Source of the DNA: Enoplolaimus lenunculus
Taxonomy: Eukaryota
NCBI GenBank assembly: GCA_030248215.1
Contig: JASANG010000621.1
Location: 1-64,000, forward strand
Direction of reading: 5' to 3'
DNA: 64,000 bases
Positions 6,156 through 33,454 of the stretch are shown piece after piece. The translations under genes were made by a program, and so were the position numbers. The notes below the pieces were generated by a model. The model made no database searches and was not told the DNA's origin. It saw only the letters and a program-made list of their open reading frames with translations. The number at the start of each line of letters is the position of its first letter. Positions within the stretch are counted from its first letter, which is position 1.

Positions 6156-6694
6156 TAAGCTACCACTGAGTAAACTGTCATGAAACTTTAATGGCATCGA
6201 TGATTGTCAAATTTAACATTCCTAGGATAATCAGCTCTGAACTGTTCAACAATCCAATGTTCAACACAGATAATTTTTTTTCAAGTTCATAGAACGTAAA
6301 CTACGTTTATATGTCATTTTCATTTATTTAAATTTGTTGTATGTGCGAAAAATATTCTGAAGGTTTTGGTGCTGGAAAAACCACTTTTTATTCGCAGGCA
6401 CATGCTGTAAACCTTGAAGACTACACTTATTCGTAATTTTCATACTCGTGTTTTTATCTTATCATGCATTTAGATACATTAAAAGGCTGGAACGATGCCC
6501 AATATACTTAGTTTGGGGCGTTCTAGTTTTAATATATAGATTTGTTTGTTAAAATTTGTTCCAAAATTATAGCCAGCTATACAAATGAGCTACAAAATAA
6601 AGCGACCGGGCAAAATAATGTGTAAAAAACATCACCCTGTTAAAATACGATACAAAATGCACGAGCAATTTGGTAATATTTTTGATTTTGGCCC

Positions 6695-10578: not shown

Positions 10579-12542
10579 TGTAACACAGCGAACCCAGAAA
10601 TTCAAATCGATCGGCACTCCGGGGAACGACTTCCTAACTAAGTTCGAAGGTTACCAAAGCAAACACAAACGGCTAATTCTCTTACAATAAAAAATGACAC
10701 GGGGCGCCTACTGAATCAAATCAAGTTGATAACCCCACGCCCAAAATAGACTCCGTACACAATATTCAGAAAACTCCGCAGAGCACAAATCGTGCTAACG
10801 CAAAATTCGCTACGTACCACTGACGCCCCAAAATTAAATAAATTTGTAAGATTACGGCACCTTTGCAGGGTAGGCTCATAACAACGCACCAAAAATTATC
10901 CTGTGGCACCCTGATTCCACTTCGATACTAGAAATATTCCGAATTAGCACAAAAATAAACCACTGTTTACCAACAAATTTTCCACTAATTTCCAAAAGAT
11001 ACAATTCACGACGAGAAATTTATGCGAACTAGTGCTCACTCACAGCACCGAACCTGTTAAAACTCTCTAAGTGTCGTTAAAAACAAAATAAGTGATTGAA
11101 TAATTTACGGATTCCTTACGGAAATAACTCGTATGCGCGCGCTCTATTGTATACGCAAGTACAACCGCTAAAATTCTCGAACAGACCTCTTGTCTGACAC
11201 CACAAATTCCCAAAATCTATGCACTTATATTTAACGCAAGTTTCTACAAAACTTCCACTGCACCACGATTTCAGTTAAAATGCTACAACTCTAACTCAAA
11301 AATTATCGCACACAGCGGTTCTTAACTAATCTTAATACTTCCCGTACAAACTAAGTAAACGCCTTTAAGCGCTCAACAAAAATCAAAATCGCGCGTCTCT
11401 ATACGTCGCTAAACAATCGGACAGCATATCACACCCGTACAACTCTGAGCCCCCAAACCCAACCTGTTCTACTCTTATATAGTCGTGAACCGAAAGGTTA
11501 GCTGAATTCTAAGAATCTTATACTACATTTTTAAAATTCCTCCAAATTTCTGAAAAACTAATAAATTTTACTTATCTACAGTTTTTCTTACAAATTTCAA
11601 CTTAAAAATTTTGTTAAAATCTAACAAAAACCTGTTTTGTCTAAAAAATCTAGTTTTTAGATGAAAATTTAAACTTTTAAATCGGTTAAAAAATCTAAAT
11701 TATGTTGTTTTGACCCTAGTAATTTATTTTAAAAACAAAATTGATCTTTCAAATCGCATAAAAAGTAAAAAAATCCACTATTTTGACGAAAATCCGTAAT
11801 TTTCAAAACAAAATTTTAGCTAAAAATTTACAAAAATTTACATAAAAACTAAGTTTTGACCAGAATTTATAAATTTCAAAACAAATTTTATTTTTTAAAT
11901 TAAAATTTTAAAATAACTTCTAATATTTTGTCTTCAAATTAAAATTTGCAATCGTTTTAATTCTAGGAATTAAGCCTACCAAAATTTCCAAAAAGGGGAT
12001 AATTTCAGTACTATTTCACAGATATGGAATTTTCTCTGTTATACTATGCTACAAATTGTATCTCGGAAATAAAACCTTGATTTTAAGGTACAAATTTATT
12101 CCTTTTTATGGTTTCAAACATGATGAACCTGGCCTAAAAATTGCAATTATAGCAAGGACAAAACTCAACTAAAACGACTGCAAACAAAAAACTACAATCT
12201 ATCCGCACCGCATAACTCCTGCGCCTACTGTAAACCTAACCCGTGTATAAAAACTAAAAGCATAAAATCGCGGAGGCAAAAAAATATATATTGCTGGCTG
12301 TATAACCCAACAACAACAACAACAATAAACAACAACAACAACAATAAACAACAACAACAATATTACTACAACAACAACAACAATATTACTACAACAACAA
12401 CAACAATATTACTACATGTATGTATGCACACATACAATTGATACACACTACACAAGCATCACTACAGGGTAATAGGTATAAAAAATTTTAAAATTTCGAA
12501 ACGGGGGTATTCTAAGAATTTCAGCTACCCCCCCACTCTACA
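10579..12542 (-). repeat. 3' LTR (1964 bp)
   Basis: Minus strand reads TGTAGAGTGGGGG...GTGTTACA; 10579-10840 and 11434-11830 align to the other LTR; contains a (CAA)n tract at about 12307-12415. Confidence 0.85.
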
Positions 12543-12560
12543 CTCTCCTCACTTTATTTT
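12543..12560 (-). other. Polypurine tract
   Basis: Minus strand AAAATAAAGTGAGGAGAG directly precedes the TG of the 3' LTR. Confidence 0.8.
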
Positions 12561-14315
12561 GAGCGAGCTCCTGCGAGTTAACTTAAACTACTTCCTAAAA
12601 CAAAAAAAACTACCACAACCCCAAAAATATACTTACCAATCACAGTCGAAGCCTTTGGACCATGATCCGAGGCGCTTCACCAAATATTGGCCTGTCATTC
12701 GATAGCTATCGTCAACCGCTTAACCATTAAAATGTAGAGTTAATCAACTGAACTTCCTAAAATAAGAATTCCTAAAAATACAACAACAATAATATTAAAT
12801 TATAGACAAAATTTAGCTTTGCGTTTAAGAAATTGGTGGCTTCCTTACGGAAAGCAATGTTTCCGAAAAATAACAGAACACTATTTACACACCGAATCCA
12901 AGTATATTTTAACTCACCAGCTGTTCGCTAAAAAATGCCTAAAATACATCGACGATTACACAACATAATATTTAAACTGTACACAAAGAATTAAGTTAGA
13001 TAAGTAAGGAAACACATTGGCTGCCTTACGGCTACAGTAATTTAATTTTCAATAAAGTAGCTAATGACTCAAACTAAATTTTTTTTTTTTTTAGTTTTAA
13101 GTTTCTCTTCCTTTCATTTCTTTTGTTTTGTTTTATTAATTTACAATTGTACATACCCGTATTAAAGCTCACGCTAGGTAAGCCAAACTTACTATGTCTA
13201 TACATTCCAACACTTTTTAAGACTTGTTGGTATAAAAATTACATGATCACCCTGAAATAAAATACAATGTATATGATTAACATTAAAGCGATATATACAG
13301 CATTGGTAATATTTGACAAAATTATGGCTTCCTTGCGGTCATAAATGTTTTTGTAATAACTAAAACATTGCATTTTACATAGCTAATCGACGTGTTATAA
13401 TATGTTCGAAAACAATAACTAAAATACCATCTACAAAAGTACATTAATTACTCTCTGTACATTGAGGCACATGGAGTAAATAATAAGTAAACAAATTGAC
13501 TCCCTTACGGGTTCAAATACCAGATATGAGAAAAGAAAATAAAAAGTATTTTTATTTAGTTTTATTTATTTAATTTTTTTAATCTTACGCCCAAAGATAT
13601 ATATTTTTTTACATATTTTTTTGTTTATTTTTGTTTTGCATATAATTTACAAATATGTACATAGTTGCTTTACACCACGTAATCGAGGATAGATACTTAC
13701 AGTCACTGCAAGTTGATAAGCTTTCTAATTACACTAATCAAAACAATTAATCCAGACACAATAAAAATTCCTCACCATGCTGCCATTGTTCGCCCACATA
13801 TCTTTGCCGGATCACCCATTGACTGTCTCATATAAGCTGCTTTTCCGATGATTGCTAAAACAGGTATTTTAAAATATAAAAACATCTAGTTCATAACATG
13901 AAACATAAGTTAAAGAACGTAGGGCTCCCTTGCGGGCATATGCTACAACTGAACTCACCATTGAAACGAGATAAAAATTTTGCATATCAGTACCAAAATA
14001 GACTCATTGCAGATTTATGCATGAGTGATTAGTAATTGTTCGGTCAACTTAGAAAGCTGTCTGTGCGCACGCCATTGTTTGAAACACTAAAATGGTAGTA
14101 TATGGAAATAGGCAACTCTATGATTTCCTTACATACTCATTAATTGAATTGTATGGCTCCCGTATGGGTAAAACGCCTATAGTATTTAAATGGCTAAGCT
14201 AGTTCAAACATAGGCAAAACCTGTGTTGTTATTTTTTTTATTATAAAACTCAAACTGAAATTATCCTTACAATAACATGGTAACACTGTGATTAGTGACT
14301 AACATTAACGAAGCA

Positions 14316-14903
14316 CTATTCAACATAGCAGTACACAATGTTAAAAACATTCGGTCGCGAAATCAAAGGTGCTCGTGGTATTAGTTTTTTTCTTGAAACA
14401 AGTTTTTTATTACTTAATTCTACCCGCAAACGCATTAGCATATGACCCATTTCATTTCTTCCTGGCCAGCTAGCTGGACATGCGAACTGTGGATCAAATT
14501 TAGTTACTCCAGTTCCCCAAAATGAATCATATTTATTAGTTTCTGCTATAAGGCAAGTTCCTGTATCAACCAATGCATCTCTAAGCGTAGGGTGTTGACA
14601 AAACTTCGCATAAACCGCTTTTTCCATAACACGGAGCTTGTCTTTCTTCCACCCTGCAATCAATCGCCTACCTACAAAAGTTCTTAACATTAATTTTTGT
14701 TCAATGGCCATCAGTCGTTTTGCTTGTTTAGGATCACTAGTCTTTAATATTTCTTTAGCTAACTGCAACCTACCAAGTTCTTTGGCTTTAGTGTATTGGT
14801 AGAAATGCTCCACTGATGCATAACCTTGGCCATCAATTACAATCGGAACTAAATATAAGTTTGAAAACACATGAGATGACCCGATAAACGGAACTATAAT
14901 CAT
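14316..14903 (-). CDS. NADAR/YbiA-family hydrolase (195 aa from first ATG; frame open to 15002)
   Basis: Family motifs FSNLY..PIVIDG..YASVEHFYQ..KA, W....LRVMEKAVYAKFCQHPTLR..L..TG, IAE...D.FWGTG and W.GRN.MG.MLM.LR. Confidence 0.9.
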   Translation of the reverse strand: MIIVPFIGSSHVFSNLYLVPIVIDGQGYASVEHFYQYTKAKELGRLQLAKEILKTSDPKQAKRLMAIEQKLMLRTFVGRRLIAGWKKDKLRVMEKAVYAKFCQHPTLRDALVDTGTCLIAETNKYDSFWGTGVTKFDPQFACPASWPGRNEMGHMLMRLRVELSNKKLVSRKKLIPRAPLISRPNVFNIVYCYVE

Positions 14904-15161
14904 GTTATTTGTGCTTAATCTACGAGGAAAGGTATAAACTAACCTAATGGAATATATTGAGAATATGGCCAACCAGCGTTGATGGTAAATCCGCACAGCC
15001 AAATCCTACCGCAACCTCCAGTGAAATTTATTGCAGTTAATGGAATTAAGCAACAGTTGAGATTAGAGCAGCTGTTGAAATGTCCAGAATATAGGCACGC
15101 GAAGCGTAATTATTATGCGATGACTAATGTTATGTTAGGGATATATAGGCAGTAATATAGT

Positions 15162-18100
15162 TTATCGCGATGCTGGTAATGGATTAGCTAAATTAATCCG
15201 CATATGTATGAACCGTTTTACTGCCGGAGCCATTGGCTCAATCCAGGCGTTCGCTTCGCTACACTCTCTAATAGACTCACGGACCAGAGGCTGATCAAGG
15301 AAGTGCAACGTGTTGCATACAAAGAAATTAGCTTTTCTGGCCCGCGTAATAGTAACGTTCACTCGCCGATACTCAGATAAGAAGCCTAGCGGGTGTGGCT
15401 GACCCGCTGCGTCTAATGATGGGAGTGACCGGACGAGAGAAATGATCATATAATTTCTCTCGTCCCCTTGCCAGACATTAGCACATCCGATTTTTATGTC
15501 TGGATATTCCCTACCTACCATCTGTTTGAGCAGTTCCGTCTGAATTGCATATGCTGCATTGATTCCAATATCCGCCGGTGGCACCCCACCCTGGTGTACC
15601 AGCAGCTCAACCAACTTAGTTACCGCCATCAGTTCATGTCTATTGTACAGACTCACACCATGGTACGCCTGTTGCCCTTCGATATGCCAGATCACAATGG
15701 GTTGCCCAAAGGGGATTTGGCGAACGCTAGGCCAGTCGGTGTGTTGCAACCACTGGTCAGCGGAACAAAGCAAGGGCGTTTCAGTATACACCACGCGATT
15801 TGGCGGTTCCAGTAGTGCTGGCACTGAACGGTAATTTTCACGTAGTTGTATTACTCGGCAGTCAGTACTGTTTTTCGCTAATGTCAACAATAACTCCATC
15901 CCTGATTCTTCCGCGCCGAATTGCCACAAAACCCTGTTGGTGACATATGCCGGTAGCTGGTGCACGTCACCCATCAAGATAACTTGACCGGCCACTGCTA
16001 ACGGTAGAACCACCGACATGCGCGGTAAGTCCACTGAGGCGGCCTCATCGATTGCTATTACGTCGAAAACGCCATGACCGTAATTGGGCTCGTTTTTACA
16101 ATGATGAAATGCGTCTAAATTGTTCACAATGTCCATAATAGCCATATCCATGGTGCACACAATGATTTTATGATATAACAAAGCACCAGATGACTTAAGT
16201 TCCCGCTGCCCGTCTTGTTCGGTGGTGTTAGGATCGCTTCGCGTCGCGCAGTACGGCTGTAACACTGGATCAATGAGATTCATGTCGTAGTTGCGCCGTA
16301 GGTAGCGCACGACGACTCCGGGTGGTATGACCTCGTTGTTACTAAGGGACTGTAAATTTTGAACCAGTTTTAGCGCGAGAATATTTGCAGCAGCGTTGGT
16401 GCTTGTGACACACAAAAAACGCTTCTCTGGATTGCTCCATGACAATGCGGAAAGAATGCGGGCAAGGGTGCTGGTTTTTCCTGTTCCGGGAGGTGCGCGA
16501 CAAAGACTAACTTTTACACCCTGAATCAGTGCGGTAAAAACTTGTGACTGGTTATAATTTAACCAGTGTTGTACATACTCGTCAGTCGTTCTGGTCGTTC
16601 GCCACTGTATGGGTTTCTGATTCAGTTCATTCCTAAGGCCACAAAAAAGCAAACCATACCACGACCTCCAGGCGGCAAAGAAACGTTGTCGAAATTGTAT
16701 ACGGCGGCTGTTCGCCAGGACTTGAGCATCAGCGGTCGGTTCGACAGACGCTGATGACGTGGATGATTGCTCCGAAGTGTCAGGCATTTCAATATCCCCT
16801 TCCGGTTGCTGCGGTAAACTCGGAAGCTGTGGCTGCTCGATCACACAGTTTAATAGTGAAATTAAATATTCCAGTGCAGGACCCATCATTGGAACCAATT
16901 GAACGTCTCGTAAGTTTCGAAGGTTGGGACCATCATAGAATATGTTTCGCGTTCCTTTGTTCAGTTTGATGACGACCATGGTGTGATTGATGTTAATAGG
17001 CTGTGAACCGACTACTGCGACGACTATCTTGACTTTCCAGTCCGATTGTACTAAATTAGCCAGGCGCGTGAGTCGAAGGTTGCGAAATTCGTTGGTGTCC
17101 ACTGTAACCGTCAAGAACATGGAATCGGGTGGCGATTTCTCAAACTCGTATAAATCGGAGCTTCCGCTATTCGCAATGGTTTCGAAATCACTAGCTACAG
17201 TTGGTGATACCGTAGTCACCGTCGCCTTTGGAGGGTCGTCTTCCTCGTACTGAACCTGGCCTAATAATTCTGCAAGTACGCGGTGAGGCAAATTGTTAAA
17301 GGTTACAGGTCGAGTCGGGTCAAGGATTGCCAGGATATCGTTCTTATTAGGTGTACTAGGCAGAGGCTCTGGTGCATCTGCCGCCACCAGCCGGTGATAA
17401 ACCGGGCGTTCGACCAATGTCTGAGCTGGTGCTATGGCGAACTGATACCAGATTTCAAAGTATGGTGATAGGTGCGGTATAGTTATCTTGGTTGGTTTCA
17501 AACAACGATTCACAGTTGCAGGGTCTTTTCGCTCGTTCGGTACGCCAAGAGCAGATTGTGGAACCAGCGACAGGTGCCCAGCCTGCTGTTCTGCACTCGA
17601 TTTACGAATCAGCGCTTGCAAGGCCTCATCAATTTTCTCATCGAGATATAAGTCGCGGAAATCCCATTGGATTATCGTCGTGAACGGGGCAAATTTGTTT
17701 ACTCGGCGACGTGATTGATACTGAACCCACATTTGTAGCTCGTAGTAGTGTAACCCAAGCCGACCCTCACCGGAAATGGTCACGTGAAATGTGGGTGATT
17801 GGTTACGTGCACGGGGCATTACGGGACTAAATACAACGCCGTCCGGAACGATACAGTTTGGGGTACGTGGTATAAACAGTTGAAAGGGCTGCCGATCCGT
17901 AGTGGTAGCGTCGAATAAAAGAGTGGATACCTGGTCAAAGTCCGACAGTCCTTGGATGACTGGCAATGCTGGAGCTTCAGGCGCCCAAGGTGCGCCGAGA
18001 TGAAAACTGGCCTGTCCATTGTCTGCTCCAACACATTCAATCAACACCTGAGCACCATACATCGAGTTTTTAAGCTCAGTGATGCTGCCGATCCTGCGTC

Positions 18101-18542
18101 TTTCAATCCACTTCTGGTGTTCAACCAATGCTACCCCCACCGGACTAAATCGAAATTTCTGCACTTCAATGCTGACCATATGAAACGGAGTCCACAAATG
18201 ACTGGGGCCAAATATAACCGTTCGGCATACAGGACATAAAGTCATTGGACTCTGGGGCAAATTCTTAGGCCAAGCTACGTACTGGAGCTGCTCTGCTAAT
18301 CGCTCCCAAAGCGCATGATCTAGTGGACTGGAATCGTCTGTTAAACCCAATTCGCATAGAGCTGGGCGCAGAGCATCAATAGGTAAATAGGCCGAAAGAC
18401 AGTTCAGTGCTGCGGATTGGCTGTAGGGGTGAAGCGTCTCGCGAATTAAAGATGTAGCAACGAGATTGGACAAAGCCGGAGGAATGCCAAGTCGAGCACT
18501 AAACTCCACGACGGGGTTAGGGCTACCAGCAGCAGAATTCAT
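15162..18542 (-). CDS. Upf1-like superfamily 1B helicase (1126 aa, intronless)
   Basis: Walker A APPGTGKT, Ia TSTNAAANIL, Walker B IDEAA, III GDVHQLP, LRENYRS, YNRHE, V WQGDERNYMIISLVRS, VI RRVNVTITRAR. Confidence 0.92.
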   Translation of the reverse strand: MNSAAGSPNPVVEFSARLGIPPALSNLVATSLIRETLHPYSQSAALNCLSAYLPIDALRPALCELGLTDDSSPLDHALWERLAEQLQYVAWPKNLPQSPMTLCPVCRTVIFGPSHLWTPFHMVSIEVQKFRFSPVGVALVEHQKWIERRRIGSITELKNSMYGAQVLIECVGADNGQASFHLGAPWAPEAPALPVIQGLSDFDQVSTLLFDATTTDRQPFQLFIPRTPNCIVPDGVVFSPVMPRARNQSPTFHVTISGEGRLGLHYYELQMWVQYQSRRRVNKFAPFTTIIQWDFRDLYLDEKIDEALQALIRKSSAEQQAGHLSLVPQSALGVPNERKDPATVNRCLKPTKITIPHLSPYFEIWYQFAIAPAQTLVERPVYHRLVAADAPEPLPSTPNKNDILAILDPTRPVTFNNLPHRVLAELLGQVQYEEDDPPKATVTTVSPTVASDFETIANSGSSDLYEFEKSPPDSMFLTVTVDTNEFRNLRLTRLANLVQSDWKVKIVVAVVGSQPININHTMVVIKLNKGTRNIFYDGPNLRNLRDVQLVPMMGPALEYLISLLNCVIEQPQLPSLPQQPEGDIEMPDTSEQSSTSSASVEPTADAQVLANSRRIQFRQRFFAAWRSWYGLLFCGLRNELNQKPIQWRTTRTTDEYVQHWLNYNQSQVFTALIQGVKVSLCRAPPGTGKTSTLARILSALSWSNPEKRFLCVTSTNAAANILALKLVQNLQSLSNNEVIPPGVVVRYLRRNYDMNLIDPVLQPYCATRSDPNTTEQDGQRELKSSGALLYHKIIVCTMDMAIMDIVNNLDAFHHCKNEPNYGHGVFDVIAIDEAASVDLPRMSVVLPLAVAGQVILMGDVHQLPAYVTNRVLWQFGAEESGMELLLTLAKNSTDCRVIQLRENYRSVPALLEPPNRVVYTETPLLCSADQWLQHTDWPSVRQIPFGQPIVIWHIEGQQAYHGVSLYNRHELMAVTKLVELLVHQGGVPPADIGINAAYAIQTELLKQMVGREYPDIKIGCANVWQGDERNYMIISLVRSLPSLDAAGQPHPLGFLSEYRRVNVTITRARKANFFVCNTLHFLDQPLVRESIRECSEANAWIEPMAPAVKRFIHMRINLANPLPASR

Positions 18543-18940
18543 AATTAAAGAGCGTTGATAATTACGGCGCCTTTACAGGCAAAATGTCGCTGCTAAACTC
18601 GTAATGTTACTGTTGTTGATATATGATGACTATGGGTCCCTTACGGGTAAAACATTGCTGCAGCCAGCAGTACATAACTTTGACAGTTGAAGGTCGATGA
18701 TAATAAAACGTAACAACTATGGATCCCTTACGGGTACACAGCGCTGCCACAAGCAACCATATTAATAGCAGTTGAATGCTGATATTATTGCTACTACTTT
18801 TAATACGTAATAATAATAATAATAATGTAATTTGACAGTTACGGGTCCCTTACGGGTTATAACTACTTTGTTTATTTCAAACGACACGACATCGTGCGTA
18901 GTCCCGATCGCCAATGACATTAATGCTATGGAAATTGTGA

Positions 18941-21900
18941 TTACAACGGAAAATGGCTAGAGCCACGAGCGCGTAAATTATACCGATGCATTGCCCGAGG
19001 TACGGGCGCAGTGGTTTCCTGGTGCTCCTGTTCCCTTGCATCAATGTCACTAGATGCCGTTTCCATAGCAGAGTCGTTACCGTTTGATACATACTGCAAT
19101 TCATGATTGCTGGATAAACCGGGATTTTTATCTACTTCTAATCCGTTCTCAATATCTACGTCCATATTTGCCTTCGTACTGCAGGTACCGGTTTCATCTT
19201 GACGTAATTCAGGTACATAAGGACCATAAAAAGGTTTAATGCGTTCTACATGCACCCTTTTATGTTGCTCCTTAGGGTTAGTTATGGATTGCAAAACAAC
19301 ATCAGGAAATACTAACTCTATGATTTCATAAAGACCGTGCCATTCTTGTCCTAATTTCTTAGTTTTTCCTTTCTTTTGAAAAGGCACGTGCAATAGGACC
19401 TTTTGTCCCTCAAAGAAATGCGGTTCCGCGGCACGACGATCATGATAAAATTTCATGTGATCTTGGGCTGACTGTATGTTTTGCTTAGCCAACGCCCATG
19501 CTGCTTTAAGGGTAAGTTGCAAATCCCTAAAGCAATCTTCTTCATCTAAGTAATTGACGTTACTAATTGGCAATGCTACATCAATTGGCAGCCGTGGTTG
19601 TCTCCCATAAACTAATTCAAAGGGGCTAAGCCGTGTAGATTCGTTAACACTTACTCTATAAGCAAAACAAGCAAACGGAACGAACTCATCCCAAGTGCGT
19701 TGAGCACTGTCTATGTATTGAGAGACCATGTTCATTAAGGTACGATTTATTCGTTCCACCACCCCATTGGTTTGGGGTCGATAGGGTGTTGTAAAAACTT
19801 TTCGGGTTCCTGTAATTTTACAAATTTGGTCAACTAATTCGCTTCGAAAATTAGGTGCATTGTCACTAATTAATTCACATGGGGCTGAATGGCGACAAAC
19901 TACCTCAGTCATAAACAATTTTGCAATAGTAGTGGCTTTTTGATCAGGAGTGCAAATGGCCTCGGGATATTTTGTAAAACGATCAATAAAAATTACCACG
20001 TATTTGTTCCCATTATAGGTTTGGGGTAATGGGCCAAGAACATCCACATGATATGAAAAATTGGGCTGCGTAGTAGGAATTGGATTCAATGGTGCCTTAG
20101 GCCTGGCCGGTCCAGTTTTACGCTTACTGCACTCGATGCAAGCCTTGCACCAATTTACTACGTCACGGTACATCCCATCCCAAAAATACTTGGGTAATAA
20201 CTTTTGATATGTCTTGGCAACACCAAGGTGTTGTCCACCAACAACATCATCATGATGTGCTGATAGTAATTCTTCACGCATAGAGAAAGGAACAACTAAT
20301 TGTTCCCAGAGTACACCGGGTCGATATTTGGGTATAGGATAATGATGGTACAAAACTCCATTTTTTACTACATAACGTGGCTGGATTAATGCAAAGTGCG
20401 AAGCCAGCTTTGCATCATCCGGGTTTTTACCAAATTCAATATATTCCTTTAAAGCCTTAATCTCTGGGTCCTGCTCTTGTTTTTCCGCAAACGGAATAGT
20501 TGATGGTAGGTCCTGCTTGTTGGAAGTTTCACTTAAGGCAACTGCGTATGCAAACTTAATATCTTCCTCATCAGAACCTTCTTCTAATTTAGAAATTTCA
20601 GTACGAGAAAGGGCATCAACATGCGACATATTTTTACCCGCTCGGTGTTCAACATTAAAATCGTATTCACTTAAAGCAAGTGCCCAACGCTGTAATCTTC
20701 CCGATGCATTCTTATTAGTTAATAACCATCGAAGGGCTGAGTGATCAGTTATTATAGTCACATGCTGTCCGTATATATAATTACGAAAATACTTCATAAA
20801 ATAAACAACAGCTAATGCTTCCAATTCAGTAGTGGTGTAATTCCGTTCAGCTTTTTGAAGCAAACGACTACCATAAGCAATAGGATGGGCTCTGCCCTCG
20901 TTATCTTTTTGAGATAACACAGCTCCAATTGCCTTACCGCTAGCATCTGTTTCCAAAATGTATGGCTTGCTGGGATCGGCTATTTGCAAAATTGGAGGAG
21001 ACATAAGTTTAGATTTTAATAATTGAAATGCTTTTTCAGCCTCTGAATTCCATTTAAAAGGTTTCAAGGTGCTAGTAAGTTGACTAAGTGGCTTAGCAAT
21101 TGCTGCGAAGTCTTTTATAAAACGACGGTAATAACTGCAAAACCCCAAGAAACCTCGCACACCAGTAATATCATTCGGTATAGGGTAATGTTCAACTGCT
21201 TCAATCTTTTTCGGATCTGGCTTCAAGCCTTCAGCAGAAATAATATGACCTAAATATGGAACTTCTTTTCTTAAAAAGTTACATTTAGCTGGTTTAACTT
21301 TAAGACCGACATCCCTTAATCGTTCAAATACAAGACGCAAGCGTCTAATGTGCTCGTCAAAAGTTTCAGAAAACACGCATATATCGTCTATATAGATAAG
21401 GCAGACACGCTCAACTAATCCACGAAGGGTGGCCTCCAGTGTACGTTGAAAAGTAGCAGGAGCGTTGCATAAACCAAAAGGCATTTTAGTAAATTGATAC
21501 AAACCAGCTGGGGTAATAAAAGCAGTTTTCTCAATTGAATCAGAAGCCATAGGGACTTGCCAATATCCTGATATTAAATCCATAACACTAAAATACTTTG
21601 CTTTCCCTATACACTCCAGTAAATCATTAATATTCGGAAGTGGAAAACAATCCTTCTTAGTCACGGCATTTAATTTTCGGTAATCAATACAAATGCGCAA
21701 AGACTTGCCGTCTTTCTTTTTAAGTACAACCATTGGACTAGCCCAGGGGCTTGTTGAGGGCTCAATGATTCCGTAACGTAGCATGTTGCCTAACTCTGTA
21801 TCCACCTTATCCTTAGATTGAAAAGGCACCCGATAAGGTCTCTGCTTAATAGGCACTGCATCCCCAGTGTCAATTGAATGTTCAACTACTGATATAGTTC

Positions 21901-24900
21901 CACAATCGTAATCATGCTTTGCGAAAACATCGTTAAATTCCAAAAATAATTCAATCAACTTTGACTTTTCGATTCCCGAAATTTCAGACTCCTCTAATTT
22001 TAGATCAGCTATCAAATCAAAATGTGGTTGACAACTAACAGATTGTAAGTTCAATACAGTAGGTAAAACACAAGTATCTAAGGGTTCTATTCGACCAACA
22101 GTCATGCCCTTATACAGCCGAACGGGACAATTCGACATATTAAGTAATCGCAAAGGAATAACTAAGTTATCCGCATCACTTAATATTAATTCAACTGTGT
22201 TTAAACCGTATAACTGAATAAGCTTATAATTTGGTTCAAAATACACATCACCCTCATGTCCAAACCCTTTTACTTCGCAGGGTATAAGCACCTCTGATCT
22301 TGAAGGAATAAGTGTAGTATCTGGCAAGAGTACATTTTGGCTTGACCGATATCCCATCTTTAACTGCATTTTTCCAAGCTTAACAATGCCTGTTGCGTAA
22401 TCTAGACTTATAGTGCCAAATTGTCGTAGTAAATCAACCCCTAGTATTGCTGGGTGGGCGCATTCATCTGATACATACACATGAAAAGGTAGGGATTTGG
22501 AACCTATTTCAATTTGTACTTTAATAGCACCTTTCAGGGGTAATGCATGACCAGTAACTCCAACAGCGGTGGTGGCGGGTACTGGAACCAGACTAGTTTC
22601 GGGTTTATTCAATTTTCGAAAAGTTTCTGATGACATAACAGTAATATTACTTCCAGTATCGATAACTGCTCGTACAGGTATATCATTCATGTAAATTTCA
22701 ATGTCCGAAAGAGAGGGTCCTAAAGTCAAAACAGTCTCCGCTACGGTATGACTCGGAGAAAGGCTGGTTGAAAACTGTAATGCACGTTTCCGTTTGCTAC
22801 ATAAAAATTTTGATGGTCCAATAACAGTTGAATGTATAGGCAATTCCAACGTTTCAGTTTCAGGGGAAGTACATATTACTTCCACAGGGGTTGACCTTTC
22901 TTGTCCATAAGATTTACAACAGCAACGCAAACACTTAAACCATTTGCCATACCAGGCGTATATAACACATATACCCACTACCAACATGACCAACCCGACA
23001 GCTATATAACTTAATAAATCGCTATAGGGTAAATTGAAATCAGCACTAGGTGTAAAAGACAAAAGCTCCCTTTTTAATCGGGTACGAGTCAAATTAGACT
23101 GATACTCTACGTTTTCTAAGCTTCCCCACACTGGCGGTGGCACTACGTCTTGATGTAGAGTGAAATTGTATTGAACATCAGGTGAAATTTCAAAGTTAAG
23201 AGCGGGTCTAGAGGTCGACATAAGCACGCGGTCTCCAACAATCAGCATACTAAAATTTTCAAAAGGCATAAACATAACCCCGCGCTCCGGTACACGCATA
23301 GTCTCAATTACAGATGAGGAGACCAATTTTTTAGTCCTTGTGAGCTTGACAGTTGGTTCCGAAGTACGCAAAAGTAATCCAACCCGAGTGGTTTCAATAT
23401 GGGTGCCTGCAAACATTTGTTTAACTTCCATTGCACATGTATTATTATGCACTACGGCTTGGCGCATTCCTCTAAAACAGCTGTCCGCTTCGCTAGTTGG
23501 CAAAGCTTCCATCCCACAGTACCATAAACCAATACGCTTGTCACAAGCTTCGGACTTTACTTCGTGATAATACCCCTTACTAAACATACGAGCATAAGTT
23601 ACAAACTTAGGCAAAGCTAATCGGGCAATTATTTGTTTTGAAGGAATGTTAAAACCGACGTTTATAACCTTCATAAGCGGCAACACGTTCTTAATTCGTA
23701 TTAGGGGGATTTCCAAAATTATTCCAAATTTTGTTTCTCGAATATCTAGTAGCACGGGATAAACCTTAACAAAGTGGTAGAATAATCCGGGATCATGTAT
23801 GTATACTGAATTTCGCAATGTTGGCTCCTGTTTAACAAGCTTTTTAATTTGAGACGCAGACAGAATTGCGACAGATAAGCGACCGCTATCACTAGCAAGG
23901 ACTAATGCATCCACTACTTTACGTACTCCATTTATAAACTGATTTGATTGAGAAATAAAATGCGAAATCGTTACCGATTCTGTTAAACTGCAGGTCATTG
24001 TAATTCGGGTTTGTTCTACATATTTCTGTATCTCATGGGTTATTGCGAAAACTCGCTGTTGGTTAATATTCAGTTTATGAATTGCCTCCGAATTTTCAGT
24101 GATTTCGTCATTCAAAAGTCGAACACTTTTCTGGAGGGCCAAAATTTTTGGTTCCAAATGTGACAACTTAATACTATTGGCAATTCCAAGTCCGGTGCCC
24201 ATGATCGAAGTCAAACCAGTCAAAAGCAGGGGGACAAAGCGGCGATTACGACCCGAAGTAACAAAACTACAAGTGAATGGCTTTTTCTCACACATGTCTC
24301 TCATTAGCTCTTCATAAAATGCAGAGTCGATGGTATCCTCATAGTTATTAGCCAAATCCGAAAGTGCCTGTTTCTTAATCATGCTAAATAAACGCTGTTG
24401 ACCAGTGCAATTACAAAAAGTAGGTGTACCACCTTGAAAAACAAGAGGAGAGCATGGCTTAATTCGGTCTTGTCCAGCATGCACAACTACAGGCAGGTAA
24501 ATGGATTCACTTGCGGTTAACACTAGACCCTCAGGTATAAGCCCAACCCCAACAGAAGGAAAAATTTTTGGTTGTAATTGATGTAATGTTTGCGTTAAAC
24601 TAGAATCAACACGACCCGTTAAACTAAATATGAGTGCAATCACACAACAAAGTAAAATATTCCATGGCTTAAGTGGAGGAACTTTGCACCTACTTGATCG
24701 TCTAGGACAGTTACTTCGAACCGGTGGTTTATCTGTAACAGCTTCATTCAAATTTAAAGAAGCAGGTTCAGTTTGGGTAAATTTAGCAACATGATGTGTA
24801 GCCTGGATGGCTCCGACAAAATTGGGAAACGATTTTTCCACTAGGAGGGCATTTTGACTACGCAAAGTAGCAAGCTCTTTCTTAAGACGATCAATTTCTT

Positions 24901-26104
24901 GCTTAGAATCGCATCCAGAATTAACAGCTTTTGCATCATTAGATACTAGAGTAGTAGCTACAACGGCTTTGTTAGGCGGGACTGGTGATAAAGTTGGTAA
25001 ATTTGGGATATTAGGCCGCGCAGGGCGGTTAAAGTTCGATGCCGGAAAATTTGGCCGATAAGTCGACCGTCCAAAATTATTTTGAGTTTGGAGTCTGTTA
25101 TTCCGAGGAAAATTTCCGTTACGTAACAAACAGGCCATTGCTAAATGTCCAACTTTCCCACAATTATAACACTTCGGACCGCGAGGGGAAAAATTTTGAG
25201 CCAAATCGGGACGTGGATTTTGAAAGTTTCGATTTGGTGGGCCCCTATTTGGTGGACCTCGGTATCCGTTAGAAGGTTGGGGTCTGTTCCGTGGCTCAGG
25301 ATGCCTAAAGGTGTTTCTGCGCATGTTCTGTATAAGCTGCTTTTGATTATTTGCCAGCAGCTGGACTCCCCGAGCGAGCGTATGCAAAGTCTGCTTTGGA
25401 GCAGGCACGGACATGTTCAAAGGATCAACGCCTGTCGGTTTTCCACAGAGTAAAGACTGCATATCTAGGCGCTGAGCTAAGTCCTCCGCTTCCTTAAGCG
25501 TTTTTGGCATATCCCGAAAAACTTCTAGCTTAGCTTCAGTTGGAAGTAAACCGCCGAAAAATCTATGTATAACTCTACGGTCAAACGCGGCGTTGTCCAA
25601 ATTAGGATAAACACTTTTACAAGCATTCTTAATACCCTTTAAATAAGCTGCAACACTTTCACCAGGCAGCTGATGTCGCTGCTCAAGCGCTGCTTCATGG
25701 TACATAGTCCACTCAGTGGTTGTCAATTGGGCCTCTAAAGCCGGTACTAAATCAGTAAAACGGCGCTTAGATTGTTCAGGTACTCGCTCATATGCATCCT
25801 TAGCACGATCTTTTAAATAGGCAGGCAACACCTTAAGTTTCATATCATCATCAATTAAACGGGCATTACAATAAGTATTAAAAGTATCAATCCAACTTTT
25901 AAAATCAGACCCGGTTAAATCTCCCCGAAAAAATGTAATTGATAAATCAGGTTCAGTACCCAATCTTACACGTTGGGATATTAAATCAAAATCGTCACTT
26001 AATCCTCTTAAGCCATCATCTACACGATTAGCAAGATCTTTCACAACAGCATCTAGCTGAGCTATGTTCCTAGTTATATTTTCCATGTTTGGGTTTTGTA
26101 ACAC
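18941..26104 (-). CDS. Gag-Env-Pol polyprotein (capsid, CCHC knuckle, class I fusion glycoprotein, protease, RT, RNase H, integrase)
   Basis: In order: CYNCGKVGHLAMAC; hydrophobic WNILLCCVIALIFSL; RNRR/FVPLLLTGL; TM YIAVGLVMLVVGICVIYAW; VIDTGS; YIDD; ETDASG; HHCC zinc motif and DDE core (DVLGPL, ISDNAP, GVVER). No stop or frameshift. First ATG is at 26086 and the frame is open further upstream. Confidence 0.95.
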   Translation of the reverse strand: MLQNPNMENITRNIAQLDAVVKDLANRVDDGLRGLSDDFDLISQRVRLGTEPDLSITFFRGDLTGSDFKSWIDTFNTYCNARLIDDDMKLKVLPAYLKDRAKDAYERVPEQSKRRFTDLVPALEAQLTTTEWTMYHEAALEQRHQLPGESVAAYLKGIKNACKSVYPNLDNAAFDRRVIHRFFGGLLPTEAKLEVFRDMPKTLKEAEDLAQRLDMQSLLCGKPTGVDPLNMSVPAPKQTLHTLARGVQLLANNQKQLIQNMRRNTFRHPEPRNRPQPSNGYRGPPNRGPPNRNFQNPRPDLAQNFSPRGPKCYNCGKVGHLAMACLLRNGNFPRNNRLQTQNNFGRSTYRPNFPASNFNRPARPNIPNLPTLSPVPPNKAVVATTLVSNDAKAVNSGCDSKQEIDRLKKELATLRSQNALLVEKSFPNFVGAIQATHHVAKFTQTEPASLNLNEAVTDKPPVRSNCPRRSSRCKVPPLKPWNILLCCVIALIFSLTGRVDSSLTQTLHQLQPKIFPSVGVGLIPEGLVLTASESIYLPVVVHAGQDRIKPCSPLVFQGGTPTFCNCTGQQRLFSMIKKQALSDLANNYEDTIDSAFYEELMRDMCEKKPFTCSFVTSGRNRRFVPLLLTGLTSIMGTGLGIANSIKLSHLEPKILALQKSVRLLNDEITENSEAIHKLNINQQRVFAITHEIQKYVEQTRITMTCSLTESVTISHFISQSNQFINGVRKVVDALVLASDSGRLSVAILSASQIKKLVKQEPTLRNSVYIHDPGLFYHFVKVYPVLLDIRETKFGIILEIPLIRIKNVLPLMKVINVGFNIPSKQIIARLALPKFVTYARMFSKGYYHEVKSEACDKRIGLWYCGMEALPTSEADSCFRGMRQAVVHNNTCAMEVKQMFAGTHIETTRVGLLLRTSEPTVKLTRTKKLVSSSVIETMRVPERGVMFMPFENFSMLIVGDRVLMSTSRPALNFEISPDVQYNFTLHQDVVPPPVWGSLENVEYQSNLTRTRLKRELLSFTPSADFNLPYSDLLSYIAVGLVMLVVGICVIYAWYGKWFKCLRCCCKSYGQERSTPVEVICTSPETETLELPIHSTVIGPSKFLCSKRKRALQFSTSLSPSHTVAETVLTLGPSLSDIEIYMNDIPVRAVIDTGSNITVMSSETFRKLNKPETSLVPVPATTAVGVTGHALPLKGAIKVQIEIGSKSLPFHVYVSDECAHPAILGVDLLRQFGTISLDYATGIVKLGKMQLKMGYRSSQNVLLPDTTLIPSRSEVLIPCEVKGFGHEGDVYFEPNYKLIQLYGLNTVELILSDADNLVIPLRLLNMSNCPVRLYKGMTVGRIEPLDTCVLPTVLNLQSVSCQPHFDLIADLKLEESEISGIEKSKLIELFLEFNDVFAKHDYDCGTISVVEHSIDTGDAVPIKQRPYRVPFQSKDKVDTELGNMLRYGIIEPSTSPWASPMVVLKKKDGKSLRICIDYRKLNAVTKKDCFPLPNINDLLECIGKAKYFSVMDLISGYWQVPMASDSIEKTAFITPAGLYQFTKMPFGLCNAPATFQRTLEATLRGLVERVCLIYIDDICVFSETFDEHIRRLRLVFERLRDVGLKVKPAKCNFLRKEVPYLGHIISAEGLKPDPKKIEAVEHYPIPNDITGVRGFLGFCSYYRRFIKDFAAIAKPLSQLTSTLKPFKWNSEAEKAFQLLKSKLMSPPILQIADPSKPYILETDASGKAIGAVLSQKDNEGRAHPIAYGSRLLQKAERNYTTTELEALAVVYFMKYFRNYIYGQHVTIITDHSALRWLLTNKNASGRLQRWALALSEYDFNVEHRAGKNMSHVDALSRTEISKLEEGSDEEDIKFAYAVALSETSNKQDLPSTIPFAEKQEQDPEIKALKEYIEFGKNPDDAKLASHFALIQPRYVVKNGVLYHHYPIPKYRPGVLWEQLVVPFSMREELLSAHHDDVVGGQHLGVAKTYQKLLPKYFWDGMYRDVVNWCKACIECSKRKTGPARPKAPLNPIPTTQPNFSYHVDVLGPLPQTYNGNKYVVIFIDRFTKYPEAICTPDQKATTIAKLFMTEVVCRHSAPCELISDNAPNFRSELVDQICKITGTRKVFTTPYRPQTNGVVERINRTLMNMVSQYIDSAQRTWDEFVPFACFAYRVSVNESTRLSPFELVYGRQPRLPIDVALPISNVNYLDEEDCFRDLQLTLKAAWALAKQNIQSAQDHMKFYHDRRAAEPHFFEGQKVLLHVPFQKKGKTKKLGQEWHGLYEIIELVFPDVVLQSITNPKEQHKRVHVERIKPFYGPYVPELRQDETGTCSTKANMDVDIENGLEVDKNPGLSSNHELQYVSNGNDSAMETASSDIDAREQEHQETTAPVPRAMHRYNLRARGSSHFPL

Positions 26105-26296
26105 AAGGTGGGAGTTACTATCGAGGGGTTCAGAAAATTCAGAATCGTCGTCGCTGGATTCTAAGACACCAGTACTGCGTAATTTGTATCGAGCCGTTAT
26201 TTTTACAAAACAAACTGAACGTTCTTTAAAAGGGTAAAGGTTAGCACTCGGACAAAATTTTCGACCAAAGCTCGTTTACCGGTTAAGAAAACTGGT

Positions 26297-26314
26297 ATCT
26301 CGGTGGGACCTCCA
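26297..26314 (-). other. Primer binding site, tRNA-Gln
   Basis: TGGAGGTCCCACCGAGAT lies 2 nt from the 5' LTR end and is complementary to the metazoan tRNA-Gln 3' end (ATCTCGGTGGGACCT-CCA). Confidence 0.88.
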
Positions 26315-26316
26315 AA

Positions 26317-28323
26317 TGTAACACAGCGAACCCAGAAATTCAAATCGATCGGCACTCTGGGGAACGACTTCCTAACTAAGTTCGACGGTTACCAAAGCAA
26401 ACACAAACGGCTAATTCTCTTACAATAAAAATGACACGGTACGCCTACTGAATCAAATCAAGTTGATCTTCCCAAGCCCAAAATTGACTCCGTACACAAT
26501 TCAGAAAACTCCGTATAGCACAGATCGTGCTGACTCAAAATCCACTACGTACTACTGACGCCCCAAAATAAAATAAGAAATGCAAAATTATGGTCCCTTT
26601 ACAGGTGCAATTCCAAATAAATTGCTAAATAATGACTTCTCGGAAATAGTATAGTTCTACTCCAAACACAACGACTCCCCTTAAGTAATCAAGTCAGCCT
26701 AATATCAGAATTTTAGGCCAGGAAATTAAAAAAGAATCAAATAGTTCAACACCACCAATATACACTTCTCGATAATTACCAGTTTCAACTTAGGGTCCAA
26801 AAATATGCGAAGTACTCTTTGCACGAAAAAAATCAAAATTGCGTAACTCTTGCAAAAAAATAAATCAAGTAATTTAATAACTACGGCTTCCTTACGGAGC
26901 AAAGTCGTAGCTGCGCGCAGTTTGCTATAAATCACCAAGGAAGTACCTAAATTTGCTACAATTGTCCCACCAGCAATTTTTTTCAACAAAATTTAACTTA
27001 AGTAGGCAGAAAATTTCTCGCCTACTACGGGCTCCCAAATACTCAAAATATCCTCTACGCGTACTATTCACCAAGTATCCCACGACACAACTTAACGCGC
27101 AACCGTAAATTTTATATAAACACAGGCACCCTAAGTTCAAAACAATTCGCATAAATCGCCGGTACTAATTCTCCGATAAGAAATTGGGCAGCGGTTCGCT
27201 CCCGTACAACTCTGAGCCCCCGAACCCAACCTGTTCTGCGCTTATATATTCGTAAACCGAAAGGTTAATTGAGTTCTAGGAATTTTATGATAAAATTTTA
27301 AATTCTTTCAAAAATGTTGAAAAACCACTAAATTTAACTTAAAAAAGATTTTCTTAAAATTTTCTAACTCAAAATTTTGTTAAAATCGAACAAAAAGCTG
27401 TTTTGTCTTAAAAATTCAGTTTTTAGAAGAAAATTTAAACTTTTAAAATAGCTCAAAAATCTAAAGTATGTTGTTTTGACAGAAGTAATTTATTTTAAAA
27501 ACAAATTTGATCATTCAAATCGCATAAAAAGTTGAAAAAAGTACTATTTTGACGAAAATCCGTAATTTTCAAAACAAAATTTTAGTTAAAAATTTTAAAG
27601 AGTTCTTAGAATCCTAATGTTGTGGCTTCGAATGGTTGTTTCAAGGTTCCTACAATTCTCAGAACTGTCATTCTTTAACTTCTTAAAAAGGGGCTACTCG
27701 ACCACCATTCTGGACTTAGATTACAATTTTATACTACAAAATATTAAATAACATGTCCTAGACTTCTCGCAGTAGTGCATATCCATCAGGAAGCTGATAT
27801 TGATATCCGACTATAGACTAAGCCTGATTTACCCAATACCCCGCTTATTTTTACGCAACTACCACATAATCCGACAAATTCAATTTCTCACATATGTGAG
27901 CATTCATACAATTCGATATTCTACATGAAAGCTAAAGTAATGAGCAATAATTACACTACTTGCCTACACAACACTGCACTTGCAAGTGTTCCAAAGTGCA
28001 CTGGAATAAATATACACACAAACAGATGTATGAACAATTGTTTAAGTCCTTTCAGTAGGTCCAATAGCAATATAACAGCACAAATCTTCCCAATAGCACC
28101 AACCTCAACTGTACACAATAATTAAAACACACGCACATATACAAATGTATAATACATGAACACACTAATTGTATATGTATACACAATATGTATACACATA
28201 TATATTGCACCATACACATCAATAAAATGGGATAAACTTAAAAAATTTCCTCCGACGTTACAAAAAGGGGGTTTTAAAGTCACACCAGGGTATCCTAAAA
28301 ATTCTAAAATCCCCCACGCTACA
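26317..28323 (-). repeat. 5' LTR (2007 bp)
   Basis: Minus strand reads TGTAGCGTGGGGG...GTGTTACA; abuts the PBS; aligns in blocks to 10579-12542. Confidence 0.85.
27200..27250 (-). promoter_or_regulatory. Putative LTR core promoter (TATA box and initiator region)
   Basis: TATATAAG at 27241-27248, mirrored at 11474-11481, followed ~30 nt downstream by GCTCAGAGTTGTACGGG conserved in both LTRs. Confidence 0.6.
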
Positions 28324-29485
28324 ATATACCGTACGGTAATAGCATATTAGCAGTCAAATATTCAATGTTTTCATCTCAGACTCAGCTTTTGTAGTAGCTG
28401 CCTATAAAGCCCACTCTCAACTGTAGTGGACAGCATCACAATTTTGTATGATTACGTGGAAGTTGAAAAGGTTAATAGTAAATTATTTTGCCGGAAAACT
28501 CAAGGGAATGAGCTCGAAAAATTAGCAAATTAGTTGGGTGAATTTTGGGGAGATTTTTGGAAAATTTAAAGGGTTTTGAATAGGAAAACAAAATGCGCGA
28601 GAAAAAATAATCCAGAATACGAGGAATAACAAATATAGGCACAGTGTACTTAAGGCGAAACGACACATTTATAAACTAGTAAAATCGACTTTAATCAAAC
28701 AGACACAAAGTAACTAAGGGCGGGGAACTGTGGTTGCAGGGCAACCGTAAGACTCCTGCATGACAAAGTTAAAATAGAAATTTTAATGTCATGTTTCTTC
28801 AACCCGCCTCATATCATATAAATCAAAAGTAGAATTTGATATTTGAAATTTTAAGTTTATGTTTTCCGGTGTAGCATATAATAACTTGTAACAACTCCCC
28901 TGAAAACTCACTCTTTCAATATTATGTATGTTACGAATACAACGTAACGGCTGTTGTTTATGTTACGGTAGAGTAATGAAAAATGTAAAAACATTTTTTA
29001 GTCAAATTGACATCATGAAGCGCCGAATTTAACTTCGAATATCCTGGTGTTTTTCATATCCGGATGTCCTGTGCCCATCTACGTAATTTATAACTAATTT
29101 TGAGCGTGAAAATAACAAACCTTTCTTTATTTCTATAACGCAAATAGAAACAGAAGCAGATGCCGATTTTTATCAGAAATATACCGTTGACACTTAGAGC
29201 GCAACACTGCCTTCAGCTCTTAAAACTACAAAATCTTAATTCTACAAAATCTAGGCTACCGTGGGTGGCACACACGACCTTTATAATTAACAAAGCAATG
29301 GTCCTATAATTAAGTTATGTACATGAAGTTTTTCCTAACGCCTCCATTAGCAACTTTTATAAATTTTATCGGAATTTACCTTGCTAGGCTATGAGAGATT
29401 TCGACAAATTTTTGTTATAATTATACATACTGTATGGATTTGTTAATACAGGGCAAATGATAAATTTCTATTGTTAAGGTATATA

Positions 29486-32400: not shown

Positions 32401-33421
32401 CGTTTATGACTATATTAACACAATAATTTTACTAAGATATAAAACTGCATACAGACCCCCTAAACAAGGTGGGGGGTAGGCCAAAAGCACAACGCGTGTC
32501 GGGTACATTCTTTAATACATAGAATGTACCCAGTTGCACACTCTTGTTATAAAAAGTGATCATCCACTCTTGGTGAAACTAAGTGTTTGATTCTGTTTTT
32601 TTAATTTGAACACCAAGTCGGTATTGATTGACGGTGCATTTTGTGACGGAATTTTGAACTAATAATGGAAGCGTGCACTGGGTGCAGTGGGCTCCGTAGA
32701 TTTCCTGATTACAACTGAATTGTGTTAAACTACTATTTCTGTTGCTTTTGCAACTTCTGTTGTTAGGGTTTAATGTTTATCAAGTAATGGTCGGCAGCTA
32801 TTTCTAAAATTTTAATACTCGTTTCTCTCATTATTGGCTTGAGCTAAATGATTTTCTATCAGGATTGTAAGCTTTATTTTAAGTTTAGGAAAACTCAACG
32901 AAACTCTCGATTATTTACGTCGAACGCCACACGTAAAAGTTTATGAAAAACCTGAAATCCCGGCCGAATATCATTATTCAAATAGCGACCGTTTGCCAGA
33001 AGTGGTTGTTTTGGCAGATTACGCATGGGTGATTGTTAATTCGAACAAGTGTGAGCTTAAGTTATGACGTATTAATTAAAATCTGAGGTTGCAAGCTGTC
33101 ATGTATTTGCCACACTAGCTAAGGTTGGCTCTGGCTGTGTTACTTCAGATATGAGTTACCAGAGACATAAGTGCATATATCATACCAGAGTCGAAGTTTG
33201 AGGTCGGGTTGAACCCGTCTTGAAATGTATATTTCTATTAAATGTATATAAGTTCTGTTGATGTTTAAGTTTTTGACAACCAGTATTTTTCTTTGAAGCA
33301 ACAGAATAATGATATTATTCTAATCATACGCGAGGCACACACGAATAAAATTTTTTTCATTTTTAAAAATTATCGCACAAATAAATGCAATAACAGTTAT
33401 AATAATATTAATATTAATAAC

Positions 33422-33454
<33 letters not shown>

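Follow-up and report, generated by a model that had tools for sequence, protein, structure and literature searches.

A 64,000-nucleotide stretch of contig JASANG010000621.1 from Enoplolaimus lenunculus (hereafter, the window) contains a Ty3/gypsy long terminal repeat (LTR) retrotransposon whose largest open reading frame, ORF1, encodes an envelope protein (Env) between Gag and Pol. Sequence profiles, structural models, related proteins and contigs from DNA sequencing runs show a multi-copy element with an Env of predicted F-type fold in the middle of its polyprotein, and we consider it likely that Gag, Env and Pol are made as one membrane-threaded chain that would be cut by host and viral proteases.

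Gag, Env and Pol share one reading frame

ORF1 lies on the minus strand, where the list of open reading frames for the window gives 2444 codons (18941-26275) without a stop or a frameshift. Residues are numbered from the beginning of this stop-to-stop frame, in which the first Met is residue 64 (26086). The following features were located in the frame.

18941..26086, minus strand: ORF1, a Gag-Env-PR-RT-RNaseH-IN polyprotein (PR, protease; RT, reverse transcriptase; IN, integrase), 2381 aa from the first Met
25130..25948, minus strand: Gag capsid-like region (aa 110-271) and CCHC knuckle (aa 369-382; 25130-25171)
24830..24904, minus strand: predicted coiled coil 3' of the knuckle
24608..24667, minus strand: internal signal/anchor segment (aa 537-556), Kyte-Doolittle 19-mer peak 1.89, charge +5 before and 0 after
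24239..24607, minus strand: F2-like subunit ending at the furin-type site RNRR, aligning with the F2/F1 junction of human parainfluenza virus 3 (hPIV3)
23996..24238, minus strand: fusion peptide (aa 680-702) and heptad repeat A (aa 703-760)
23021..23995, minus strand: F1 ectodomain core and membrane-proximal helix (heptad repeat B, aa ~1053-1073), from the structural model
22916..23020, minus strand: transmembrane helix and CLRCCC tail, from hydropathy
22412-22702, minus strand: protease (DTG), aa 1192-1288, from Pfam
19286..22702, minus strand: Pol, comprising protease, RT (YIDD), RNase H and integrase in Ty3/gypsy order, from Pfam

The knuckle matches zf-CCHC in Pfam (E = 0.0013), and the capsid region can be aligned to the Gag of relatives, some of which have Retrotrans_gag matches. 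About 590 residues separate the knuckle from the protease, and this insert is Env. The signal segment lies ~155 aa from the knuckle, with the predicted coiled coil in between; relatives with an Env of the gB type have a similar coiled-coil stretch in the same place, although the likeness is weak (best E = 0.13, to the database protein P0112) and serves as a lead only. Within Env, RNRR (aa 676-679) falls exactly at 24239-24250 and is followed by FVPLLLTGLTSIMGTGLGIANSI, and two heptad columns in aa 703-760 are mostly hydrophobic. The interval from the signal segment to the transmembrane helix holds 10 Cys and five N-glycosylation sequons. The transmembrane helix itself (aa ~1086-1109) reaches a hydropathy peak of 2.79, CLRCCC occupies aa 1115-1120 and the protease starts ~70 aa beyond this Cys tail. 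The tail is likely to be palmitoylated; at least two Cys are found at the corresponding position in 12 of 16 fused F-type rows examined. An initial annotation had placed a class I fusion envelope protein at 22915..24670, in frame between Gag and the protease. This placement stands, with every feature it named (RNRR, a fusion-peptide-like stretch, a heptad region, a Cys-rich ectodomain bearing sequons, a transmembrane helix and CLRCCC) located by position in the stop-free minus-strand frame.

Env is assigned to the F-type class I fusogens

Searches with Env alone returned nothing from Pfam but coiled-coil noise (DUF155, COG5_N and FliH), no Baculo_F match at E <= 1 and no match in PDB sequences or in a word-indexed protein database. 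A language-model Atlas grouped it with Fusion_gly/Baculo_F clusters (0.96), at a low recognition value that leaves this placement weak by itself. A full HMMER scan of 1.84 billion representatives yielded 118 metagenomic relatives of Env at E <= 0.001, one of them the glycoprotein of Guiyang lispivirus 2, a direct sequence match (E = 8e-20). Using a profile of 102 sequences (the window Env and 101 of the 118 relatives), we found a match to hPIV3 F (E = 4e-19) that covered profile positions 36-470 and kept both the cleavage site and the fusion peptide in register, as well as a match to the F protein of respiratory syncytial virus (RSV; E = 1e-12). A narrower profile of 14 close relatives ranked human metapneumovirus (hMPV) F first (E = 5e-5). 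Four Cys (C227, C376, C385 and C398) are kept in at least 90% of the 102 alignment rows, while overall identity is ~25% to the nearest relatives and ~12% to RSV F.

An alignment-based AlphaFold model of Env had a predicted local distance difference test score (pLDDT) of 75, mostly above 90 over model residues 241-360; a single-sequence model (pLDDT 34) was discarded. The F fold (domains I-III), the second heptad (helix at residues 518-538), the membrane anchor (transmembrane helix at 549-584) and a cytoplasmic tail were all found in the predicted model. Structure prediction followed by Foldseek against class I fusogens had been set beforehand as the test of the claimed fusogen class, and similarity is present: RSV F was matched at E = 8e-16 with a TM-score of ~0.37, and among predicted viral structures (BFVD) lispivirid/arlivirus glycoproteins took ranks 1-9 (E = 3e-24). 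When the model was compared with 48,161 chains using VIA-align, all 12 chains with Z >= 8 were pneumovirus or paramyxovirus F proteins (RSV, hMPV and paramyxovirus; Z 9.4-13.4), the best being RSV F (Z 13.4, root-mean-square deviation 6.7, 327 residues aligned). Profile matches, predicted fold, Foldseek and VIA-align all give paramyxo/pneumovirus F, and we conclude from sequence and model that the ORF1 Env is an F-type class I fusogen of this kind, which bears out the class I call of the initial annotation. A gB-type (class III) Env was considered and rejected, there being no PF24664 match and Env being positively F-type. The gB Envs of the database proteins P0107, P0108 and P0112 had no match to P0001, and the F profile matched none of 120 proteins from the Pol search.

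It has to be asked whether Env still drives cell entry or now serves to anchor Gag and Pol in the membrane or to give them a platform for assembly. We regard the second option as improbable: an anchor would not need the cleavage site, the fusion peptide, both heptads and the conserved Cys, yet all are kept, and 85 of the 118 relatives retain a basic cleavage motif with a hydrophobic 20-mer behind it, which a mere anchor could equally do without. The number of relatives and the frequency of this motif among them also exceed what chance would give.

The arrangement recurs in relatives and in other copies

Among the 118 F-type relatives, a protease follows F in 13 and Gag precedes it in 9 (both in 7, either in 15), and in none does a protease precede F. 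One relative, P0232, has an integrase C-terminal domain before F, which is the classical order. An Env tree was built from 101 of 121 rows after 20 short matches had been dropped (quick search, support from the Shimodaira-Hasegawa-like approximate likelihood ratio test (SH-aLRT) only, midpoint root). All 18 rows labelled as fused sit in a single 30-row clade with SH-aLRT support of 99; among these 18, two nearly duplicate other rows, and one of the two was labelled via its cluster. Outside this clade lie 37 of the 38 stand-alone signal-peptide glycoproteins, including that of the lispivirus, and under the midpoint root the window Env is the deepest branch of the fused clade. Two of the F-type relatives, P0187 and P0219, carry PAN/apple domains, a possible receptor-binding addition. 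Another, P0125, is an F-Env-PR-RT polyprotein filed in NCBI as the 'pol polyprotein' of a Nitrospirales metagenome-assembled genome, where it is probably from a eukaryotic contaminant contig.

Contigs from three DNA runs, which belong to one study with at most two samples and one of which may be the window's source, were compared with positions 18900-26320. Summed contig depth over env was in the same range as over pol in all three runs, and both the Gag/Env and the Env/protease borders were crossed by near-identical as well as by 85-90% divergent contigs. No piece among the DNA contigs listed spans the entire ORF1, and no env-skipping joint is listed. Some low-depth divergent copies show length differences that are not multiples of three and one copy is without part of gag, which points to decayed copies beside the intact one. 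Of 957 variant places, 40 were classed as silent or not (5/3 in env, 9/4 in pol, 4/10 in gag and 4/1 in the linker, with no stops); these are too few for inferring selection.

The Gag-F-Env-Pol arrangement is real and multi-copy, and is not an accident of assembly. The competing explanation, in which a viral glycoprotein gene landed in frame by chance in a single gypsy element, or in which the assembly is chimeric, is largely refuted and in our estimate very improbable. The mismatched LTRs of this copy, its lack of a target-site duplication and the fact that no listed contig covers the whole of ORF1 would all fit this explanation, but the similar depth of env and pol in every run and the contigs crossing both Env borders at two levels of divergence do not. 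Nor does the presence of the same fusion in 15 other proteins, whose Envs form one clade apart from nearly all of the stand-alone glycoproteins.

A proposed single membrane-threaded chain

Charges before and after the two Env membrane segments are +5/0 for the first and -2/+3 for the second, and all five Env sequons lie between them. Under the positive-inside rule, which is established knowledge on membrane topology, these flanks and the placement of the sequons lead to a predicted topology with Gag in the cytosol, Env in the lumen and Pol in the cytosol on the Env tail. The prediction rests on hydropathy and flanking charge, standing in for SignalP and DeepTMHMM, and it agrees with the topology initially proposed in that Pol is not luminal. 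In all eight F-type and all four gB-type relatives examined, one hydrophobic segment follows Gag and a second precedes the protease.

The most likely sequence of events would begin with synthesis of Gag in the cytosol, after which the hydrophobic segment behind it would enter the endoplasmic reticulum and signal peptidase would separate Env from Gag. The Env ectodomain would be glycosylated, would trimerise and would be primed by a furin-like cut at RNRR, while the transmembrane helix would act as a stop-transfer sequence, which would leave PR-RT-IN on the cytosolic side, still attached to the Cys-rich tail of Env. With Gag and Pol then on separate chains, Pol would need some other way into particles, the simplest being to travel as the spike's tail. 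Carried in this way to budding particles, Pol might become clustered, which would allow the protease to dimerise and release the enzymes; the viral protease would both detach the enzymes from the tail of Env and cut Gag loose from its anchor. The resulting enveloped particles could enter neighbouring or germ cells via class I fusion. A single chain would imply equal synthesis of Gag, Env and Pol, and any excess of Gag that is needed might be supplied by a shorter RNA or arise through breakdown of Env-Pol made in surplus.

Several observations count against this account. The signal segment is only moderately hydrophobic (1.89), and some relatives have extra hydrophobic peaks that make the parity of membrane crossings uncertain in those proteins. 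In the Env model, the fusion peptide and the start of heptad A have a pLDDT below 50, and TM-scores to solved F structures are only ~0.37. The LTRs of this copy share their termini but are 84-90% alike in just two blocks and poorly alignable in between, and at this insertion there is no target-site duplication, the flanks being different. For assembling capsids, a chain that fixes the ratio strictly at 1:1:1 is wasteful. Finally, Cer1 of Caenorhabditis elegans, which also has a single long ORF, does use splicing according to the part of a report considered here (PMC10309623).

The last two points fit a different explanation, in which the one long frame serves mainly for storage, separate Gag, Gag-Pol and Env messages arise by splicing or early polyadenylation, and the full chain is a minor product. 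Separate messages would resolve the Gag:Pol ratio problem, and the spliced product of Cer1 offers a precedent. Two donor-like GTAA words do occur between the knuckle and the signal segment (25122 and 24714), with five YAG words before the protease, although none of these sites is a strong consensus, and a scan of ORF1 for splice words found no strong donor/acceptor pair around env. The acceptor word TTTCAG does not occur on the ORF1 sense strand (0 compared with 3.6 expected; 6 of 300 codon shuffles were as low), and a looser acceptor word is depleted (5 compared with 11.6; 4 of 300 shuffles as low). Four patterns were tried, of which the two donor patterns showed nothing. The depletion of acceptor words mildly favours an unspliced message. 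Retro-inserted spliced copies could have been present among the DNA contigs, yet no env-skipping joint is listed there, bearing in mind that these contigs show presence rather than absence. In addition, the one-frame Gag-F-PR fusion has been retained in relatives with an Env identity of ~25%, and the gB-type relatives have likewise kept theirs. Together these observations make the storage-format explanation unlikely, and the membrane-threaded chain is our preferred reading.

The mismatch between the LTRs appears to concern this copy. When random substitutions were introduced into ORF1, the frame was still open in 7 of 200 trials at 1% and in 0 of 200 at 3%, so ORF1 would not have survived divergence at the level seen in the LTRs. 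It is therefore more likely that subfamilies recombined at this locus, or that it was mis-joined, than that the insertion is old, and the mismatch would be a trait of the copy, not of the family. All three ORFs of this copy are nevertheless open. For the same reason, LTR divergence was rejected as a measure of age.

Pol relationships and a possible exchange of env

Over RT-RNase H, the window element shares 51-55% identity with four Gag-gB-PR-Pol proteins, 52-53% with four env-less proteins and 37-45% with four F-type relatives, a comparison that is biased in that the gB-type rows were chosen for their likeness in Pol and the F-type rows for their likeness in Env. Three Pol trees group the window element with gB-type and env-less elements (support 97/88, with P0116; 97/97; and 88/99), but holding the F-type rows together was not rejected in any of them (approximately unbiased test, p = 0.089, 0.279 and 0.171). 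The Pol and RT trees were made up of gypsy-like database matches (45-55% identity) only, with no BEL/copia outgroup, named references or published GAG-ENV-POL sequences. These results are consistent with a possible env swap in the window's lineage. The relation of its Env to lispivirid glycoproteins is real, but at ~20% identity it is a deep one and does not tell which way a transfer went.

A broader and more tentative proposal, which we hold to be somewhat doubtful, is that the fusogen cassette can be swapped: a nematode-type gag-env-pol backbone may have traded a gB-like spike for a class I fusogen shared with lispivirids, a widespread and undescribed lineage may package RT and IN as the cytoplasmic tail of a fusion trimer instead of as Gag-Pol, and spike assembly may trigger the protease.

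The gB-type rows P0107, P0108, P0112 and P0116 are unnamed database proteins in which Gag, a gB-like Env, PR and Pol follow each other in one frame. P0108 has a PHAX RNA-binding domain 3' of its integrase, and P0116 apparently has two protease domains.

LTRs, accessory ORFs and a repeated hairpin

Outside ORF1, the element comprises the following parts.

26317..28323, minus strand: 5' LTR, 2.0 kb, TGTAG...TTACA, followed by the primer-binding site
26297..26314, minus strand: primer-binding site, tRNA-Gln type
15162..18542, minus strand: ORF2, 1126 aa, with a C-terminal Upf1-like superfamily 1 helicase (GTGKT, DEAA and QGDER), from Pfam
14316..14903, minus strand: ORF3, NADAR (YbiA-like) domain protein, PF08719, E = 4.8e-32
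12543..12560, minus strand: polypurine tract
10579..12542, minus strand: 3' LTR, 1.96 kb
11114..26897, minus strand: ten CC-GYAA-GG tetraloop hairpins in both LTRs, the 3' spacer and the ORF1-ORF2 spacer, at 11114, 12843, 13024, 13331, 13503, 13928, 18639, 18726, 18848 and 26890 (with a variant near 14165)

The order PR-RT-RNaseH-IN, LTRs bounded by TG...CA, a primer-binding site and a polypurine tract are features of Ty3/gypsy elements, and all were found. Pfam searches identify the two ORFs that follow pol as encoding a helicase and a NADAR protein, and neither is an env. ORF2 matches AAA_12 (E = 3.5e-30) and AAA_11, with UPF1 as its best PDB match (E = 2.7e-19), and its N-terminal ~600 aa had no usable match in the Atlas. 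As a guess, the helicase could act against nonsense-mediated decay, or imitate it, on an RNA whose 3' region is very long. It is likewise a guess that the NADAR protein could reverse host ADP-ribosylation; NADAR domains are known in brown-algal gypsy Pol and in oyster long interspersed nuclear elements, according to the part of a study considered here (PMC12477816).

The GNRA-type hairpin is restricted to non-coding parts of the element and is followed by A-N-C-C. We counted eight exact matches to CCTTACGG on the element's sense strand compared with 0.99 expected (0 of 100 shuffles as high), and 10 of 11 matches to CCTTRCGG fell inside the element. The outer pair of the hairpin covaries (CG in 6, UA in 3, GC in 1 and unpaired in 1 of 11 rows). 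There were no Rfam matches at E <= 1 over 10400-28500, and over 61 nt the hairpin copies fold no better than shuffles (z from +1.1 to -1.7). The occurrence of the hairpin in the LTRs and in both spacers ties the accessory ORFs to the element. It might be a packaging or export signal, although this is a guess.

Neighbouring sequence

A multi-exon host gene for an ENPP-type phosphodiesterase with a C-terminal transmembrane segment lies at 29447-36443 on the plus strand. Its first intron contains a 209-bp duplicate (98%) in which tRNA-Ser(CGA) is called twice on the minus strand, at 29780 and 30085; this may be a short interspersed nuclear element. Further along the plus strand, at 51070-51369, 52704-53177 and 54999-55355, are TIL-domain exons (Pfam E = 2e-4 and 2e-3) and a Cys-containing exon without a Pfam match; these exons are likely to belong to a host protease-inhibitor gene. 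As predicted from sequence, these intron-containing ENPP and TIL-domain genes flanking the element indicate an invertebrate animal host, and taken with the TTTCAG-like acceptors and the primer-binding site they would suggest a nematode. The window also holds an AT-rich minisatellite array with a 19-20-bp unit (6640-9400) and a near-pure poly-C run of ~440 nt (~56130-56570), possibly a sequencing or assembly artefact.

Comparison with known systems

The polyproteins of flaviviruses and alphaviruses consist of a capsid, an internal signal, a luminal glycoprotein and cytosolic proteins beyond the last transmembrane segment. They resemble ORF1 as an analogy in topology only, the proteins being unrelated and their fusogens being of class II. 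Glycoproteins of the Lispiviridae (Mononegavirales) are the best structural matches to the window Env in BFVD, where structures are predicted; however, lispivirid and paramyxo/pneumovirus F proteins are encoded by stand-alone genes with N-terminal signal peptides, and at ~20% identity no donor was identified. The F-type errantiviruses (Drosophila gypsy, ZAM and metazoan relatives with a baculovirus F-like Env) share the F-type fold, furin site and fusion peptide, but their env is a separate ORF after pol, whereas that of the window is internal and in frame.

Non-canonical nematode endogenous retroviruses described by Sacco et al. in 2022 (J Gen Virol) reportedly have a continuous gag-env-pro-pol ORF with an env derived from an RNA virus. 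Some members are said to carry an accessory ORF for an Upf1-like helicase, and the group is said to be limited to Chromadoria. A later survey of Ty3/gypsy elements, in the portion considered here, cites Sacco et al. 2022 for the flipped gag-env-pol order and gives the env of such elements as gB-type (PMC13524379), while the window element has an F-type env, a NADAR ORF and 2-kb LTRs. That survey reports the GAG-ENV-POL order in Nematoda, Bryozoa and Platyhelminthes (Chary and Hayashi, eLife 2026, PMC13524379), and the premise of the initial annotation that env lies 3' of pol is not supported for such elements. In the same portion, all 55 GAG-ENV-POL rows are ENV_HSV (36 nematode, 10 bryozoan and 9 flatworm), and a tRNA-Gln primer-binding site is given for 8 of the 36 nematode rows (PMC13524379). 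The primer-binding 12-mer of the window is identical to the Gln site of four Caenorhabditis GAG-ENV-POL elements in its supplement 1. For Romanomermis culicivorax the survey gives five ENV matches in ENV-POL order, with no intact copy and no Env type stated. These gB-type errantiviruses thus share with the window element the gene order, a Ty3/gypsy Pol, LTRs, a multi-copy state and, in some nematode rows, the tRNA-Gln primer-binding site, and the nearest env-bearing Pol relatives that we found are Gag-gB-PR-Pol proteins (51-55% RT-RNase H identity). They differ in their Env, which is a class III protein of the gB type as far as the survey was considered, compared to the F-type Env of the window.

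The gag-env-pol layout is therefore known, but an F-type fusogen in that slot, together with a clade of at least 15 further proteins, appears to be undescribed: we found no description of an F-type Env between gag and pol in the literature searched, which included few subscription journals and did not extend to RepBase or Dfam. Whereas the considered portion of the survey, the broadest on env-bearing gypsy elements, links the gag-env-pol order to gB-type Env alone and takes it as characteristic of gB lineages (PMC13524379), the F-type lineage shows that the slot accepts two unrelated classes of fusogen. This bears on how often retroelements and RNA viruses have exchanged entry proteins and on the origin of the paramyxo/pneumovirus-type F, to whose fold the window Env adds a divergent natural branch. 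The layout would also force a route for packaging Pol that is unlike the retroviral Gag-Pol rule.

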